A stretch of DNA of 32,000 nt, taken from the NCBI RefSeq assembly GCF_025234635.1, contig NZ_JANIEG010000004.1. One strand, 5' to 3'. A model generated the notes under the pieces. That model ran no database searches, was not told the origin of the DNA, and worked only from the letters and a program-made list of their open reading frames with translations. How positions within the stretch are numbered: the first letter of the stretch is position 1; every line of letters begins with the position of its first letter. Made by a program: the position numbers and the translations under genes. The stretch comes from Exiguobacterium profundum (lineage in GTDB: Bacteria; Bacillota; Bacilli; Exiguobacteriales; Exiguobacteriaceae). Shown here in pieces: positions 21,717 to 27,144 of the stretch.

Positions 21717-22931
21717 ATGAAGCGGTATGGGATGCATCTTATCATTTTGATTGGACTCGTCGTACTCGTGACATTACCGACGATTGGACTCGTCAATTAC
21801 TTAGATGCGTCTGCTGAGTCGAGTGCTACATACAAAAAAGATACGACGGTCGCAGGTGTCGACGTATCAGGGATGACGAAAGAAGAAGCGGACGTTCGTC
21901 TCGATAATGCGATTAAAGATTTTAATACGACACCCTTTTCAATCAATTTGATGGATGGGACGGTCATGGAGATTGGAAAAGAAGTCGTGACGTTCGATGT
22001 ATCGAATACGTTAGACTCCATTAAAGATACAGGTGACTATCCGCTGTTGACATCCGTAGATGAAACGAAAGTCGAGCCTTATCTCGAAGGTCAACCCGTC
22101 ACGCTGACGATGATTGCCCCGGCGTTGATGGATGCCGCATCGATGTTGGAGTCATCTGTGACATTAGAGCAAGTCGCGGCAGAAAATGAAGTCGTCGCCT
22201 CGTTCACTGTGAGCCCGACACCGGCTATGCAGTCAGCCCTTGATCGAATGAACGGATTCGAGATGGCAGCGGGAGACATCTTTAGTCTCAAATCGTTCGG
22301 AGAAGATTACGAAGCGCTCACTACATTAGGGTCTTCATTCTATCGCCTATTTGCGGCGACACCGTTCGCCATTCTCGAACGTGTGCCTCACGAAACACTT
22401 CCTTCCGGGGTAGAGCTAGGCTATGACACGAAAGTAGATGAGCGCTCGAACTTTGCTGTTCAAAACCGAGAAGACACATCATATGCCATCCTCGTTTTGA
22501 ATGAAGGGGGTTCTGTGACGGTTCAATTGCTCGGTCAACCTTTTGACGCCGCTTTCGAAGCGAGAGTTGAAGAAGTGAAGACGGTACCGCATCAAAAAGT
22601 CGTTCGCTTCTCATCTTCGCTCCCGTCAGGCAGTTCATCGGTCACCCAGTCAGGTCAAGATGGACAGTCAGGTAAGCTCTACCGGGTCACTGTGACTGAA
22701 GAAGGGGAGACGTTGGAATTACTCGGGTTTGATTTTTATGCACCGACACCGGAAATCGTGACGAAGAGTTCCGTTCCGCTTCCGCCACCGGATCCGGTCG
22801 AACCGGTCATCCCGACATTCCCGGATGAGGACGAGGAAGAAGACCCGTTCCCGAATGATTCGAACGACGACCCATTTGAGGCAGAACCGCCCGTATTAGA
22901 AGAACCTGCAGAAGAGGAGGCAGTGGGATGA
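21717..22931 (+). CDS. Membrane-anchored YoaR/VanW-family-like protein (PG_binding_4-like, degenerate VanW, G5-like, acidic Pro-rich tail)
   Basis: ATG at 21717 after GGGGGGA. TM anchor HLIILIGLVVLVTLPTIGLV. It has VAGVDVSGMTKEEADVRLDNAI (PG_binding_4-like), and GDIFSLKSFGE...LGSSFYRLFAATPFAILERVPHE...GYDTKV (VanW-like layout without the usual GGG-C-Q signature). It also has TQSGQDGQSGKLYRVTVTEEGE (G5-like) and a tail PPPDPVEPVIPTFPDEDEEEDPFPNDSNDDPFE. Confidence 0.7.
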   Translation: MKRYGMHLIILIGLVVLVTLPTIGLVNYLDASAESSATYKKDTTVAGVDVSGMTKEEADVRLDNAIKDFNTTPFSINLMDGTVMEIGKEVVTFDVSNTLDSIKDTGDYPLLTSVDETKVEPYLEGQPVTLTMIAPALMDAASMLESSVTLEQVAAENEVVASFTVSPTPAMQSALDRMNGFEMAAGDIFSLKSFGEDYEALTTLGSSFYRLFAATPFAILERVPHETLPSGVELGYDTKVDERSNFAVQNREDTSYAILVLNEGGSVTVQLLGQPFDAAFEARVEEVKTVPHQKVVRFSSSLPSGSSSVTQSGQDGQSGKLYRVTVTEEGETLELLGFDFYAPTPEIVTKSSVPLPPPDPVEPVIPTFPDEDEEEDPFPNDSNDDPFEAEPPVLEEPAEEEAVG

Positions 22932-23218
22932 TCGGCTATTTGATTTTACTCGGCTTTTGGGTACTCGCCACATTGACACTGTTCGCTTTATCCGTTCCGA
23001 TGACGAGAAAACGTGAAACGAAGCTTGTCATCAGCCTGTGGACTGCCCTTCTGTCTGGTGGCGTCTATTTGATGGTAGAAGAATCACTCGTTCAAACATG
23101 GTGGGCATGGGTGATTCTTATCGTTGCATTGATTGGAGGGGTGGCTGCGAGCGTCTTTGTCGAAGAACGGAACGACAAGACCGAGCAGGAGGAGGCTCCT
23201 CAAAGGATGGTGAAGTAA
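22928..23218 (+). CDS. Small integral membrane protein (3 predicted TM segments), unknown function
   Basis: ATGA overlap with the upstream gene. Three hydrophobic segments and a charged C-terminus EERNDKTEQEEAPQRMVK. It ends 1 nt before the pilB start. Confidence 0.7.
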   Translation: MIGYLILLGFWVLATLTLFALSVPMTRKRETKLVISLWTALLSGGVYLMVEESLVQTWWAWVILIVALIGGVAASVFVEERNDKTEQEEAPQRMVK

Positions 23219-23219
23219 C

Positions 23220-24890
23220 GTGAGACGAACGAAACGAAGATTAGGTGAGATGCTCATCGAGGCTGCGCTCATTACGACGAGTCAGCTCGATGAGGCGCTT
23301 GCACAGAAGCGTCCCGGAGAAAAACTAGGGGATGCTTTAATTCGACTAAACCATATTACCGAGACACAGTTGATTCAAATGATTCATGAACAGCTGCATG
23401 TGCCAATCATTGAGTTGTACTCCTACGACATCAATGTGACGGTCACGAAGCTCGTACCGAAAGCGTTGGCACAAAAGCACGATATCATGCCATTTGAATT
23501 GAACGGGAATACGCTTCATGTCGCGACGGCCGACCCACTCGATCTCATTGCCATTGATGACGTCCGTCTTCAGACCGGGATGAACATCGAGATCGGCATC
23601 GCCACGAGAGAGCAGATTCGAAAGACGATCAGTCGTTACTACGAGATGGACCACTCCCTCGTCGAAATTTTGAAAGAAGATGCTCCCGAAATCGAACGAC
23701 AAGAAACAATTAGTCGAGACGATGCACCGATTATCCGCCTCGTGAACCAATTGTTCTTAAGCGCCATCGACCAACGTGCATCGGACATCCATTTCGATCC
23801 ACATGAGAAGCAACTCCACGTCCGTTTTCGAATTGATGGGGACTTGCGTACCGAGACGGTCTATCCGAAAAAGATTCAGAGCGTCATGCTGACGCGTCTT
23901 AAAGTCATGAGTAACCTCGACATCACAGAAAGTCGTCTGCCACAAGATGGACGGATCAAGTACACGCTACGCAATCGCGCCTATGATTTCCGCGTCTCGA
24001 CGCTCCCGACGATGTATGGAGAGAAAATCGTTATTCGGGTCCTCGACTCATCTCAAGGACTGACCGATTTGACGAAACTCGGATTTGGCGAACGAAACGA
24101 ACAGGCGTACCGTGACATGCTGAAACGTCCGAATGGAATTATCTTGATCACCGGTCCGACCGGTTCAGGGAAATCCTCGACATTGTATGCTTCGTTAAAA
24201 GAACTGAATGATGAGACGAAAAACATTATTACGGTAGAAGACCCGGTCGAGTATCAACTTGACGGCATCAACCAGGTTCAAGTCAACTCGAAAGTCGGCT
24301 TGACGTTCGCGTCAGGGCTTCGTTCGATTTTACGTCAAGACCCGAACATCGTCATGGTCGGAGAGATTCGAGACACGGAGACGGCTGAGATTGCCATTCG
24401 TGCCTCGCTCACCGGTCACCTTGTATTGTCAACGCTACATACGAATTCAGCAATCAGCTCCATCACCCGTCTCGTCGATATGGGAGTTGAGCCGTTCCTC
24501 GTCGCCGCTTCGACGACGGGACTCGTGGCACAACGACTCGTTCGACGCGTCTGTCGTGATTGTGGTCAAGTCGAACCGGTATCGAAGAGTGAACGTAGCC
24601 TGTTCGACGCTGAAGGTGTTCACATCGACCAGATTATTCGGGGTAAAGGCTGTGCGTCATGCAACTTCACAGGGTACCGTGGGCGCCTCGCCATTCACGA
24701 AGTCATCCCGATTGATGAAGGCTTGCGCCGGATGATCATGAACCAGGCGACCGAGTCTGAGATGGTCGACTATGCCAAGTCACAAGGAGCGACATTCCTG
24801 CTTGAGGACGGATTAGAAAAAGTCGCCGCCGGTTTGACGACGACTGAGGAAATATTACGAACGGTCATTACGGAGAATGCTTATGATTAA
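23220..24890 (+). CDS. pilB: Type IV pilus assembly (extension) ATPase PilB (GspE family)
   Basis: N-terminal T2SSE_N/MshEN-like repeats RLGEMLIEAALITTSQLDEALAQ and KLGDALIRLNHITETQLIQMIHEQ. Walker A ITGPTGSGKSST. Asp and His boxes. Tetracysteine CRDCG...CASCNFTGYRGR. GTG start. Confidence 0.95.
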   Translation: MRRTKRRLGEMLIEAALITTSQLDEALAQKRPGEKLGDALIRLNHITETQLIQMIHEQLHVPIIELYSYDINVTVTKLVPKALAQKHDIMPFELNGNTLHVATADPLDLIAIDDVRLQTGMNIEIGIATREQIRKTISRYYEMDHSLVEILKEDAPEIERQETISRDDAPIIRLVNQLFLSAIDQRASDIHFDPHEKQLHVRFRIDGDLRTETVYPKKIQSVMLTRLKVMSNLDITESRLPQDGRIKYTLRNRAYDFRVSTLPTMYGEKIVIRVLDSSQGLTDLTKLGFGERNEQAYRDMLKRPNGIILITGPTGSGKSSTLYASLKELNDETKNIITVEDPVEYQLDGINQVQVNSKVGLTFASGLRSILRQDPNIVMVGEIRDTETAEIAIRASLTGHLVLSTLHTNSAISSITRLVDMGVEPFLVAASTTGLVAQRLVRRVCRDCGQVEPVSKSERSLFDAEGVHIDQIIRGKGCASCNFTGYRGRLAIHEVIPIDEGLRRMIMNQATESEMVDYAKSQGATFLLEDGLEKVAAGLTTTEEILRTVITENAYD

Positions 24891-25920
24891 TCAATCGATC
24901 GAAACCATCTTGACGAATGCGGTCGAGAAACGCGCCTCGGATATTCATCTGACAGCCGGTTCTCCTCCGATCATTCGAGTAGACGGGAGTCTTATTACGA
25001 TGGGCGAGGAGAAGGTGTTGCCGCACCATCTCGAAGGATATTTAAAAGAAATCATGACCGACGATATGCGCGAACGTCTCGAGCATGAACGAGATCTTGA
25101 TTTCTCGTTCGGCGTTCCACGTGTCTCCCGTTTTCGGGTCAACGCCTATTATCAACGAGGCACGATTGCCATCGCGTTCCGGTCCATTTCCGGGGAAATC
25201 CCGACTTTGAACGAACTCAATCTGCCGACGGTACTGAAGCGTCTGATTGAGAAACCACATGGTCTTATCTTGGTCACGGGTCCGACGGGTTCAGGGAAAT
25301 CGACGACGCTCGCGGCGATGATTCATGAAATCAATCGGACGCAGCGAAAACGAATCATCACGCTAGAAGATCCGATCGAGTATTTACATTCCCATGACCA
25401 AAGTATTGTCGACCAACGGGAAATCGGCTCTGACGTCATGAAATTTGTGAGTGGTCTAAGGGCCGCCTTACGGCAAGACCCTGACGTCATTCTGCTCGGG
25501 GAGATGCGTGACTTGGAGACCATCTCGACGGCGATGACCGCCGCAGAGACGGGGCACCTCGTCATGGCAACGCTCCATACATCGAGTGCGATGTCGACGG
25601 TGAGTCGAATCATCGACGCGTTCCCAGCTGAGCAACAGGACCAAATCCGGACACAACTCGCGAACGTCTTACTCGGTGTCGTGAGTCAACGGTTATTTCC
25701 ACGGATTGATGTGCCGAAAGGACGCGTCGCCGCCATGGAAATCATGTTAGGGAATCCGGCTGTTGCCAACTTGATTCGAAATGAAAAAGAGTTCCAGTTG
25801 CCGACCGTCATCCAGACGAGTCGCCAGCACGGGATGCAGTCGATGGATGCTGCCATCGAACAACTTGTTCGGCAAGGGATCATCAATCCGAACGCCGTCC
25901 CGACAGAAGAGATGAGGTGA
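24883..25920 (+). CDS. pilT: Type IV pilus retraction ATPase PilT
   Basis: RASDIHLTAGSPPIIRVDG, Walker A VTGPTGSGKSTT, and PAVANLIRNEKEFQL (AIRNLIRE-like). About 345 aa with no N-terminal extension. The ATG at 24883 lies 7 nt after GGAG; the ATG at 24877 is the ORF-track alternative. Confidence 0.93.
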   Translation: MINQSIETILTNAVEKRASDIHLTAGSPPIIRVDGSLITMGEEKVLPHHLEGYLKEIMTDDMRERLEHERDLDFSFGVPRVSRFRVNAYYQRGTIAIAFRSISGEIPTLNELNLPTVLKRLIEKPHGLILVTGPTGSGKSTTLAAMIHEINRTQRKRIITLEDPIEYLHSHDQSIVDQREIGSDVMKFVSGLRAALRQDPDVILLGEMRDLETISTAMTAAETGHLVMATLHTSSAMSTVSRIIDAFPAEQQDQIRTQLANVLLGVVSQRLFPRIDVPKGRVAAMEIMLGNPAVANLIRNEKEFQLPTVIQTSRQHGMQSMDAAIEQLVRQGIINPNAVPTEEMR

Positions 25921-25926
25921 TGAGTG

Positions 25927-27144
25927 ATGGCGATATTTCAGTATGAAGGAAAGCTCCTGAACGGGAAGCGTAAGAAAGGTCGCGTCACGGCCGTCTCGCT
26001 TCGGGAAGCGAAAGAAAAGTTGCGTCAAGAATCTATTCTCGTAACGGACTTGGCCGAGCTCGAATCGACTGGACTGAACAAAGAGGTCAACTTGCTGCCA
26101 GAACGAGTCAAAATCGAACACTTGATCATGTACGTCCGTCAGTTCGCGACGCTCATCCGGGCGGGTGTCCCGATTGTTCGTGCGACTTCAATCTTACGGG
26201 TACAGACCGAGTCGAACGTATTGAAGAAAGCACTGAGTCAAATCGAGGATGATTTGAAGGAAGGGATTGCCTATTCCGAGGCGATCAAAAAGCACCCACG
26301 AGTCTTTTCGAACTTCTTTAGTTCGATGGCACTTGCCGGGGAGACGAGCGGGAACTTGGAGGAGGCGCTCGATCAAATCGGGCTCCAACTTCAAAAACAA
26401 TATGATGTGAAGCGGAAGGTCATTTCTGCCCTCACGTATCCGTTTGTCGTCTCCATCGTCGCCATTGGCGTTGTCGCCTTTTTAATGGTGAACGTCGTCC
26501 CGACGTTTGCGAGCATCTTTGGTCAACTCGGCGGTGAGCTTCCGCTCATCACGCGCATTGTCGTCGCGGTCTCCGATTTCATCGCGACCTTCTGGTGGTT
26601 GTTACTCGGACTCGCGATTCTTGGAGTTCTCACCTTCACCTGGATGTTGAAGCGGGACCGGGAACGATTCGTCATCGATGGCTTGCTATTGAAGATGCCG
26701 ATTTTTGGAACGATTGTGATGAAGTCTCAGATTGCATTGCTAACGCGAAGTTTAGCGGTCCTTCTACAAGCGGCCGTCCCGATTTTGACGGCGATTGAAA
26801 TCACCGAACGTATCGTATCGAACCGCGTCATCCGGAAAGGACTGACGGAGGCACGTGACATGATGGCGCAAGGGGTTCCGCTTCACGAGCCGCTCATGCG
26901 AAATGCGAACTTCCCGGCACTCATGACTCAGATGATCGCCGTCGGGGAAGAGAGCGGTGATTTGGATTCGATGTTGAACGAAGTCGCTGAGTTTTATGAG
27001 ACGGAGGTCGAGACGACAACCGACCGCTTGAAGTCGATTATCGAGCCACTTCTCATCGTCGTATTGGCAAGTGTCGTCGGGGTCATCGTCATCTCGATCG
27101 TCGTCCCGATGTTCCAAATCTATGGTGATATTCAGAATCAGTAA
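25927..27144 (+). CDS. pilC: Type IV pilus platform protein PilC (T2SS F family)
   Basis: MAIFQYEGK... N-terminus, duplicated T2SSF-type domains, three hydrophobic spans, and C-terminal VVPMFQIYGDI. The ATG at 25927 follows GAGGTGA; the GTG at 25924 is an alternative. Confidence 0.93.
   Translation: MAIFQYEGKLLNGKRKKGRVTAVSLREAKEKLRQESILVTDLAELESTGLNKEVNLLPERVKIEHLIMYVRQFATLIRAGVPIVRATSILRVQTESNVLKKALSQIEDDLKEGIAYSEAIKKHPRVFSNFFSSMALAGETSGNLEEALDQIGLQLQKQYDVKRKVISALTYPFVVSIVAIGVVAFLMVNVVPTFASIFGQLGGELPLITRIVVAVSDFIATFWWLLLGLAILGVLTFTWMLKRDRERFVIDGLLLKMPIFGTIVMKSQIALLTRSLAVLLQAAVPILTAIEITERIVSNRVIRKGLTEARDMMAQGVPLHEPLMRNANFPALMTQMIAVGEESGDLDSMLNEVAEFYETEVETTTDRLKSIIEPLLIVVLASVVGVIVISIVVPMFQIYGDIQNQ

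Follow-up and report, generated by a model that had tools for sequence, protein, structure and literature searches.

A cysteine-free VanW-like/G5 membrane protein encoded directly upstream of pilB in Exiguobacterium profundum and many other Bacilli

The window analyzed here is the whole 32,000-nucleotide stretch of Exiguobacterium profundum DNA (NCBI RefSeq assembly GCF_025234635.1, contig NZ_JANIEG010000004.1), which carries genes for a type IV pilus (T4P). The first gene of its pilB-pilT-pilC run, here called gene A (21717..22931, + strand), encodes a membrane protein of 404 amino acids (aa) with a VanW-like domain, a G5 domain and no cysteine. By its sequence, this protein is probably a pseudoenzyme; it is derived from the VanW-type L,D-transpeptidases, and the catalytic nucleophile and its loop are gone. 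It belongs, on the same kind of evidence, to a set of Cys-less VanW proteins for which a single origin was not rejected and whose genes directly precede pilB in many Bacilli. We proposed that the gene A product assists the pilus machine as a wall-binding protein without catalytic activity, a reading to which we assign a probability of about 0.5.

Loss of the Catalytic Loop and Residues

According to Bollinger et al. (PNAS 2024; PMC11348318), VanW domains are L,D-transpeptidases whose triad consists of a conserved, essential Cys, a His and an Asp. In the canonical enzymes, including the 280-aa VanW paralogue of this genome, the catalytic motif reads G-G-G-x-C-Q-V-S-S-T-L-Y (MAFFT). In gene A, the conserved F-S motif is followed almost directly by T-T-L-G-S-S-F-Y, and ~14 alignment columns containing the Gly-rich loop before the catalytic Cys were deleted in the gene A family (hhalign; MAFFT, 67 proteins). 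The residue aligned to the catalytic Cys in both hhalign and MAFFT was Thr202 (22320..22322, +), and there were zero cysteines in the entire protein. The first-pass annotation had stated that the VanW core lacks its usual Gly/Cys signature, and this absence proved to be real. The other motifs shared with canonical VanW domains were retained, namely FS, S..Y, ER, G.D/E, and F.N.

The remaining two residues of the triad were aligned to His225 (22389..22391, +; ERxxH motif) and Asp237 (22425..22427, +; GxD motif). The His was kept in Exiguobacteriaceae and lost nearly everywhere else in the family, and an acidic residue at the Asp position was conserved family-wide. Among 123 loop-deleted representatives, the Cys position was occupied by Ser in 73, Thr in 21, Asn in 15 and eight other residue types in 14 (including H, G, Q, K, I, and V), and by Cys in none. 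The His position held Ser in 75, Gly in 39, His in 2 and other residues in 7, and the Asp position held Glu in 110 and Asp in 13. Judged as a VanW L,D-transpeptidase, the gene A protein thus fell short in profile score and lacked the catalytic Cys, and it possessed the triad His and Asp.

Public records name these proteins "VanW family protein" or "vancomycin resistance protein YoaR." Since the catalytic Cys is missing from them, counting them among the L,D-transpeptidases or the resistance determinants would be a mistake. Despite such names, the gene A product would be expected neither to make 3-3 cross-links nor to bear on vancomycin resistance.

Association with pilB across Bacilli

The distribution of the family was surveyed in 151 Bacilli genomes, a sample in which related genomes are not independent. 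A Pfam VanW search of these genomes returned full-length matches plus a set of weak half-domain matches, and 15 of the 16 weak matches retrieved were located immediately upstream of pilB-pilT-pilC. The scores of the family profile were bimodal: 25 places in 24 genomes scored >339 bits, and the next score was 140 bits. All of the high-scoring places except one adjoined pilB (24/25), the exception being a second copy in one genome (G048). The genes of the 100–140-bit class and two Desulfuribacillus genes also adjoined pilB; these belonged to 13 genomes and were of the full-domain type. Counted by hand from the tables of family-profile matches and PilB coordinates, a VanW-like gene was directly upstream of pilB in ~37 of the ~81 Bacilli with full-length PilB, of the loop-deleted type in 24 genomes and of the full PG_binding_4 (PG4)-VanW-G5 type in 13. 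The PilB orthologues positioned after the VanW-like gene in other Bacilli were full length and 52–57% identical. The suggestion of the first-pass annotation that this gene is hard-wired into the pilus operon was therefore borne out by the 24 high-scoring places and the 13 full-domain genes, and VanW-like genes do recur in Firmicutes pilus operons.

A wider search found 438 family proteins at E<=1e-30 among 1.84 billion representative proteins, and the best 150 of the 438 matches were nearly all full-length, with about 400–600 residues. Three representatives were looked up independently, and all three were located among T4P genes, two of them in the gene order of the window. The third (L113:6001-7491; GCA_002813025.1, CP025024.1) had folC/GGDEF genes on one side and pilD-pilM on the other, and pilB-pilT-pilC were absent from the interval. 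This arrangement indicated that the VanW-like gene stays with the remaining pilus genes when the motor genes are elsewhere or lost. A homologue search with the single gene A protein retrieved only Exiguobacterium proteins and one Alteribacter protein, and a family-alignment query added mostly Planococcus.

In a 250-genome phylum sample, no VanW-like gene was found directly upstream of pilB outside Bacilli among the matches listed, and none of these matches exceeded 130 bits except those of this genome and one Planococcaceae genome. The nearest non-Bacilli cases among the matches listed were canonical Cys-bearing VanW genes 3.7–5.4 kb upstream of pilB, in a block of ruvX-like, VanW, mltG-like, and U32-peptidase-like genes (the non-VanW names were read from N-termini). 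This neighborhood may be the origin of the pilus-linked copy.

The Cys-bearing VanW gene was found in the same block in the non-Bacilli genomes G414, G317, and G331 (L115:1207-2682, L116:1041-2345, L117:193-1548). In two of these lineages the VanW gene preceded pilA-pilB by a few kb, and in the third it was 8.6 kb upstream of pilB.

Conservation and Selection

Gene A was intact in 43 of 43 Exiguobacteriales genomes. In the Exiguobacteriaceae loci examined, it was always followed by the same small gene (gene B, described below) and pilB (29/29). The orthologues at these 29 loci were Cys-free except for a single Cys in three; in the one locus printed, this residue was within the transmembrane (TM) helix. 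The pairwise ratios of nonsynonymous (dN) to synonymous (dS) substitution against eight Exiguobacterium orthologues were 0.05–0.12 overall, 0.01–0.11 in the VanW-like and G5 parts and 0.10–0.33 in the C-terminal tail, values that are rough with dS near saturation. Gene A is under purifying selection. Its intactness in all 43 genomes and this selection exclude a chance origin, and the possibility of a decaying pseudogene was rejected by dN/dS and conservation.

The ATG at 21717 was taken as the start of gene A because all orthologues begin there, each with MK(R/Q)(Y/F). A longer open reading frame (ORF) from 21432 was considered as the true gene and rejected, since it overlaps a divergent minor-pilin gene and the orthologues use the start at 21717. 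The closest matches of the product were 98% identical and named "G5 domain-containing protein [Exiguobacterium]."

Domain Architecture of the Gene A Protein

Five parts were distinguished in the protein. The N-terminal TM anchor (~residues 7–29; 21735..21803, +) was recognized by its hydrophobicity in the translation; the basic N-terminus before it would face the cytoplasm. The anchor is followed by a reduced N-terminal ectodomain (~residues 40–160; 21834..22196, +), the VanW-like core without the Gly-rich Cys loop (~residues 161–275; 22197..22541, +), the G5 domain (~residues 276–352; 22542..22772, +) and an acidic, Pro-rich, disordered tail (residues 353–404; 22773..22928, +). About 6 residues were predicted to be inside and the bulk of the protein outside the membrane.

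The homology of the core was established by profile–profile comparison, in which a profile of 22 family members was aligned with canonical PG4/VanW/G5 proteins at 99.4% over the whole length (hhalign); the core was also delimited by Pfam, the alignments and the AlphaFold2 (AF2) model. The G5 domain (PF07501) was above the Pfam cut-off (29.5 bits, cut-off 23; residues 283–332), and a Pfam G5 match was found in 20 of 22 loop-deleted family members. In a Foldseek search against PDB, it matched HP0197-G5, IgA1 protease G5, SasG/Aap, and RpfB with E-values from 4e-7 to 5e-4 and TM-scores of 0.67–0.72, normalized to single-domain targets. The same search gave no match for the VanW-like or N-terminal part; likewise, the VanW fold has been described as being without a known structural match (PMC11348318). 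The VanW-like core, the G5 domain and the acidic, Pro-rich tail of the first-pass annotation were thus confirmed, and its condition that profile searches might find no VanW/G5 similarity did not hold.

The AF2 model of gene A, made with 34 family members, had a mean predicted local distance difference test score (pLDDT) of 80.8. It contained one long N-terminal helix (residues 2–36) and an N-terminal ectodomain with pLDDT mostly 76–88, lower at both ends. Residues from about 160 to 350 had pLDDT >90 (about 90 for the G5 domain). The tail was disordered from about residue 360, and the pLDDT was <50 from about residue 370. Its 52 residues included 14 Pro, 12 Glu, and 7 Asp. The tail was variable, with a conserved C-terminal end, the genus-conserved AVG. 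NCBIfam gave nothing meaningful for the proteins of gene A or gene B.

The N-terminal ectodomain is probably a shortened PG_binding_4 (PF12229) remnant. It can be labeled PG_binding_4-like because it aligns, with large deletions, to the N-terminus of the full-type pilus-linked relatives, 13 of 13 of which bear PG_binding_4. In this sense, the PG_binding_4-like segment of the earlier reading was supported indirectly, by alignment and not by Pfam. None of the 22 loop-deleted relatives matched PG_binding_4 at E<=1 in Pfam. An hhalign comparison of the region with the N-termini of long canonical VanW proteins, a target set that is probably not PG4-type, gave 0.2%.

Full-Domain Relatives and Evolutionary History

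The full-domain proteins of Aneurinibacillus, Brevibacillus, and Desulfuribacillus are encoded in the same place upstream of pilB and are homologous from the TM helix to the G5 domain. They contained PG_binding_4 in 13 of 13, a full-profile VanW domain in 13 of 13 (100–143 bits) and G5 in 11 of 13. The Gly loop was kept in these proteins, and the Cys was replaced by S, T, G, I, or V in 12 of the 13. Only the protein of Desulfuribacillus stibiiarsenatis retained G-G-G-V-C-Q. The loop-deleted and full-domain groups were aligned at 100% over 373 columns that span the TM helix through the whole of G5 (hhalign, E 3e-43), and the N-terminal region of gene A appeared in this alignment as a shortened version. 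Compared with the full-domain type, the 404-aa protein of Exiguobacterium is the most reduced form.

In the maximum-likelihood tree, 31 canonical enzymes formed a clade with a Shimodaira–Hasegawa-like approximate likelihood-ratio test (SH-aLRT) value of 99. A branch with a value of 94 had the loop-deleted type on one side, and the full-domain pilus-linked proteins were between this type and the canonical enzymes. The approximately unbiased (AU) test did not reject the grouping of all 35 pilus-linked proteins in one clade (p=0.35), in a tree whose root is not established. The other VanW genes recovered from the genomes sampled retain the Cys motif, and the loss was confined to the pilus-linked forms. 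The simplest history would be that a VanW enzyme was recruited once to the pilus operon, then lost its Cys and after that the loop. Such a series from Cys-bearing through Cys-substituted to loop-deleted proteins would be a clean example of an enzyme becoming a structural part of a machine.

The conserved motifs at the ends of the variable tails look like docking motifs for a partner. These C-termini were Y-D-K-G-G-N, L-W-G-K-P-N-E, and G-H-P-I-K-G-Y in the subfamilies (A1 alignment columns 601-642; representatives P0125-P0262), x-I-Y-L-N in the full-domain type and A-V-G in Exiguobacterium.

The 280-aa paralogue is the only other VanW gene of this genome (G000:C29:25358-25759; L001:1276-2118, minus). 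Its product has G-G-G-L-C-Q intact, shows no obvious TM segment and formed a long, compositionally odd branch of the tree.

In Aneurinibacillus and Desulfuribacillus, a gene for a protein of ~240–320 aa was found directly upstream of the pilus-linked VanW gene, and the same gene was also upstream of the second, pilB-unlinked copy in G048 (L079:685-1416, L088:352-1308, L089:272-1240, L090 on the minus strand, and L076:5674-6444). The N-terminus of its product looks like a putative PRC-barrel domain.

Proposed Role and Alternative Explanations

As a non-catalytic accessory, the gene A protein would bind peptidoglycan stem peptides by its ectodomain, through the remaining substrate site and without turnover. 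Such binding is inferred because the family-invariant residues Y209, E221-R222, G235, and N250 are also common to active enzymes, and they would represent a retained substrate-binding surface. The TM anchor would hold the ectodomain beside the PilC/PilMN/PilO platform, possibly with the gene B product. The ectodomain would tie the pilus machine to the wall and would either position it beneath a gap for the fiber or keep such a gap open. In this picture, G5 would serve as a stiff spacer, and the disordered tail would extend into the meshwork of the wall. For the C-terminal intrinsically disordered regions of penicillin-binding proteins, a role in locating gaps in the sacculus has been proposed (PMC11348318). 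As a tentative and rather doubtful extension, the gene A product, possibly with that of gene B, could be the missing wall component of T4P in many Bacilli; it would hold uncross-linked stem peptides, its tail would keep a sacculus gap above PilC, and the wall would bear the retraction force.

Several observations weigh against the accessory role. In Pfam, the VanW match of gene A scored 25.2 bits, under the cut-off of 27, and covered only positions 62–129 of the 130-position profile; its relatives in other genera scored 34–42 bits, also over the C-terminal half only. No PG_binding_4 match was found in gene A by Pfam at E<=10. A simple promoter and terminator scan gave nothing convincing upstream of gene A, in particular no sigma-70-like promoter. 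By gene order and coupled junctions, gene A may lead the operon, as had been proposed from the first inspection, and its co-transcription with pilB is a prediction. About 44 of the 81 PilB-bearing Bacilli sampled had no VanW-like gene before pilB. Because this is about half of them, the VanW-like protein is no universal requirement. To our knowledge, no VanW-like component takes part in the assembly of S. sanguinis-type pili. Finally, gene A of this genus keeps H225 and D237, and the Cys-to-Ala mutants of the C. difficile enzyme Ldt4 and of Ldt5 keep some carboxypeptidase activity: Ldt4 C286A and Ldt5 C298A lost transpeptidation and still made disaccharide-tripeptide (PMC11348318). Residual catalysis is possible because these two residues are kept and such mutants retain activity.

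The last point leads to the main alternative, that gene A still encodes an enzyme, an L,D-carboxypeptidase or endopeptidase that trims or cuts stem peptides around the machine and so lowers local cross-linking for the fiber. Besides the retained His and Asp, this is favored by the Ser or Thr at the Cys position in 94 of the 123 representatives and by four full-type Aneurinibacillus proteins that combine a Ser at the Cys position with the His. However, every member of the loop-deleted group is missing the Gly-rich loop on which the nucleophile is presented, the Cys position can also be N, H, G, Q, K, I, or V, and the His is lost in 121 of the 123 representatives. The Ser or Thr may just cap the following helix. 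We therefore considered an enzymatic role unlikely. The catalytic inactivity that the first-pass annotation thought possible is supported by the missing nucleophile and loop, although this genus, unusually, retains His225 and Asp237.

Another possibility is that gene A encodes a general wall protein unrelated to pili, and that its adjacency to pilB is the inherited synteny of an envelope neighborhood. Gene A does lie in a conserved envelope region, valS-folC...maf-radC-mreB. The second copy in G048 is away from pilB, and the canonical VanW genes 3.7–5.4 kb upstream of pilB outside Bacilli are part of a housekeeping block, which would mean that the proximity may predate the link. However, the immediate adjacency on the same strand was found in 37 sampled genomes of several families with differing flanks, and the start and stop codons are coupled. 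In one genome where pilB-pilT-pilC are missing from the site, the gene is still before pilD-pilM, and the Cys was lost only in the pilus-linked forms while the other VanW genes recovered from the sampled genomes keep the motif. Inherited synteny is accordingly an improbable explanation. About equally improbable is a surface module in which G5 and the tail mediate Zn-dependent cell–cell adhesion or surface sensing and signal to the motors via the TM segment. Among the top structural matches are the G5 domains of Aap/SasG, through which cells adhere to one another in a Zn-dependent manner, and the tails of other genera end in short conserved motifs, but a single G5 on an N-terminally anchored protein of ~400 residues is unlikely to reach past a thick wall, and the protein has no cytoplasmic signaling domain, with only the ~6 residues predicted inside.

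Comparison with Known Systems

The order of parts in gene A (TM segment, PG-binding-type region, VanW, G5, and tail) is the same as in C. difficile Ldt4 (CDR20291_1285) and B. subtilis YoaR (PF04294); Ldt4 consists of a TM segment, PG_binding_4, VanW, G5, and a disordered region (PMC11348318). Gene A differs from both in that it has no catalytic Cys or Gly-rich loop and its PG_binding_4 is unrecognizable by Pfam. In addition, Ldt4 and YoaR are encoded alone, whereas gene A is the first gene in a T4P operon.

Non-catalytic relatives of wall enzymes are known from other envelope machines. In E. coli, EnvC and NlpD are catalytically dead LytM factors that are kept as non-catalytic parts of an envelope machine. 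They resemble gene A in their lost catalytic residues, but their fold is unrelated and they are amidase activators at the septum. No partner hydrolase is known for gene A, and none is encoded beside it. In Gram-negative bacteria, FimV, TsaP (LysM), the AMIN domains of PilQ, and ExeA/GspA are peptidoglycan-binding accessories of T4P or type II secretion. These wall-binding modules on a filament machine are the analogue proposed for gene A, with no kinship in sequence or fold. Their systems have an outer-membrane secretin, which is absent in the system of gene A.

We know of no dedicated component by which T4P cross the monoderm wall. A 2019 review treated the crossing of monoderm peptidoglycan by T4P as an open question, and it has been speculated that the extended PilO of S. 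sanguinis, part of a monoderm type IVa pilus, takes the fiber through the wall or anchors it there (PMC6916266). The PilO of the present locus is short (235 aa) compared with that protein, and the candidate wall module here is a separate VanW-derived gene. A full-text literature search found no paper linking VanW or G5 to type IV pili, pilB, or pilT. In a P. thiaminolyticus preprint, vanW and a pilus operon were reported as separate insertions, and the paper on VanW L,D-transpeptidases contains neither "pilus" nor "pili" (PMC11348318). Gene A is a conserved and genetically separable candidate for the passage of the pilus through, or its force on, the thick wall of monoderm bacteria. The function of the enzyme family was assigned only in 2024, and assays for activity and sacculus labeling already exist.

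The Pilus Operon and Gene B

Downstream of gene A, the ORFs of the window on the same strand were, in order, pilB, pilT, pilC, pilA, pilD, a pilM-N fusion and pilO. The extension ATPase gene pilB (23220..24890, +) begins with GTG and is followed by the retraction ATPase gene pilT (24877..25920, +) and the platform protein gene pilC (25924..27144, +); the order of pilT and pilC was conserved in related loci. Three minor-pilin genes are divergent and upstream of gene A.

Gene B (22928..23218, +) is located between gene A and pilB and encodes a protein of 96 aa with three hydrophobic segments. The TGA of gene A (22929–22931) overlaps the ATG of gene B (22928–22930) as ATGA, and a GAGGAGG box is present 8 nt upstream of this ATG. 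The TAA of gene B ends at 23218, which leaves a 1-nt gap before the GTG of pilB at 23220. On re-reading of the sequence, the coordinates and junctions given for both genes were correct, as was the description of gene B as a 3-TM protein.

Gene B was present in 29 of 29 Exiguobacteriaceae loci, with 93–97 aa and a conserved PQRMVK end in the genus, and its counterpart in the sister genus had 106 aa. Its Pfam matches, all weak and under the cut-offs, were to assorted membrane-protein families and probably reflect a hydrophobic composition. In Exiguobacterium, the 3-TM gene stands between the VanW-like gene and pilB, whereas in other genera no gene was found at this position. Instead, many genera encode a 3-TM protein of 140–315 aa, with a long acidic tail of variable length, directly upstream of the VanW-like gene. 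Gene B and these upstream proteins are alike in topology and in a basic motif that follows the first TM segment, and hhalign gave no more than 57% over 38 columns. They may represent a conserved membrane partner whose position was swapped.

The upstream 3-TM genes were observed at L070:5668-6186, L072:5268-6215, L074:5892-6317, L112:3145-4047, and L114:2639-3505, and as the upstream ORFs of L081-L086.

At 20 pilB loci without a VanW-like gene, the upstream neighbors were minor pilins, pilM-N-O, folC plus a Mur-ligase-like gene, or none on the strand. In L095, L096, L098, L105, and L106, pilB was preceded by folC and a Mur-ligase-like gene of 463–492 aa, the N-terminus of which resembles MurC/Mpl; this neighbor may be coincidental. 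In two large-genome Bacilli of family f16 (G057:C1:6287025-6296637 and G115:C4:82640-92312), a canonical VanW gene was located ~7.5 kb from pilB on the opposite strand.

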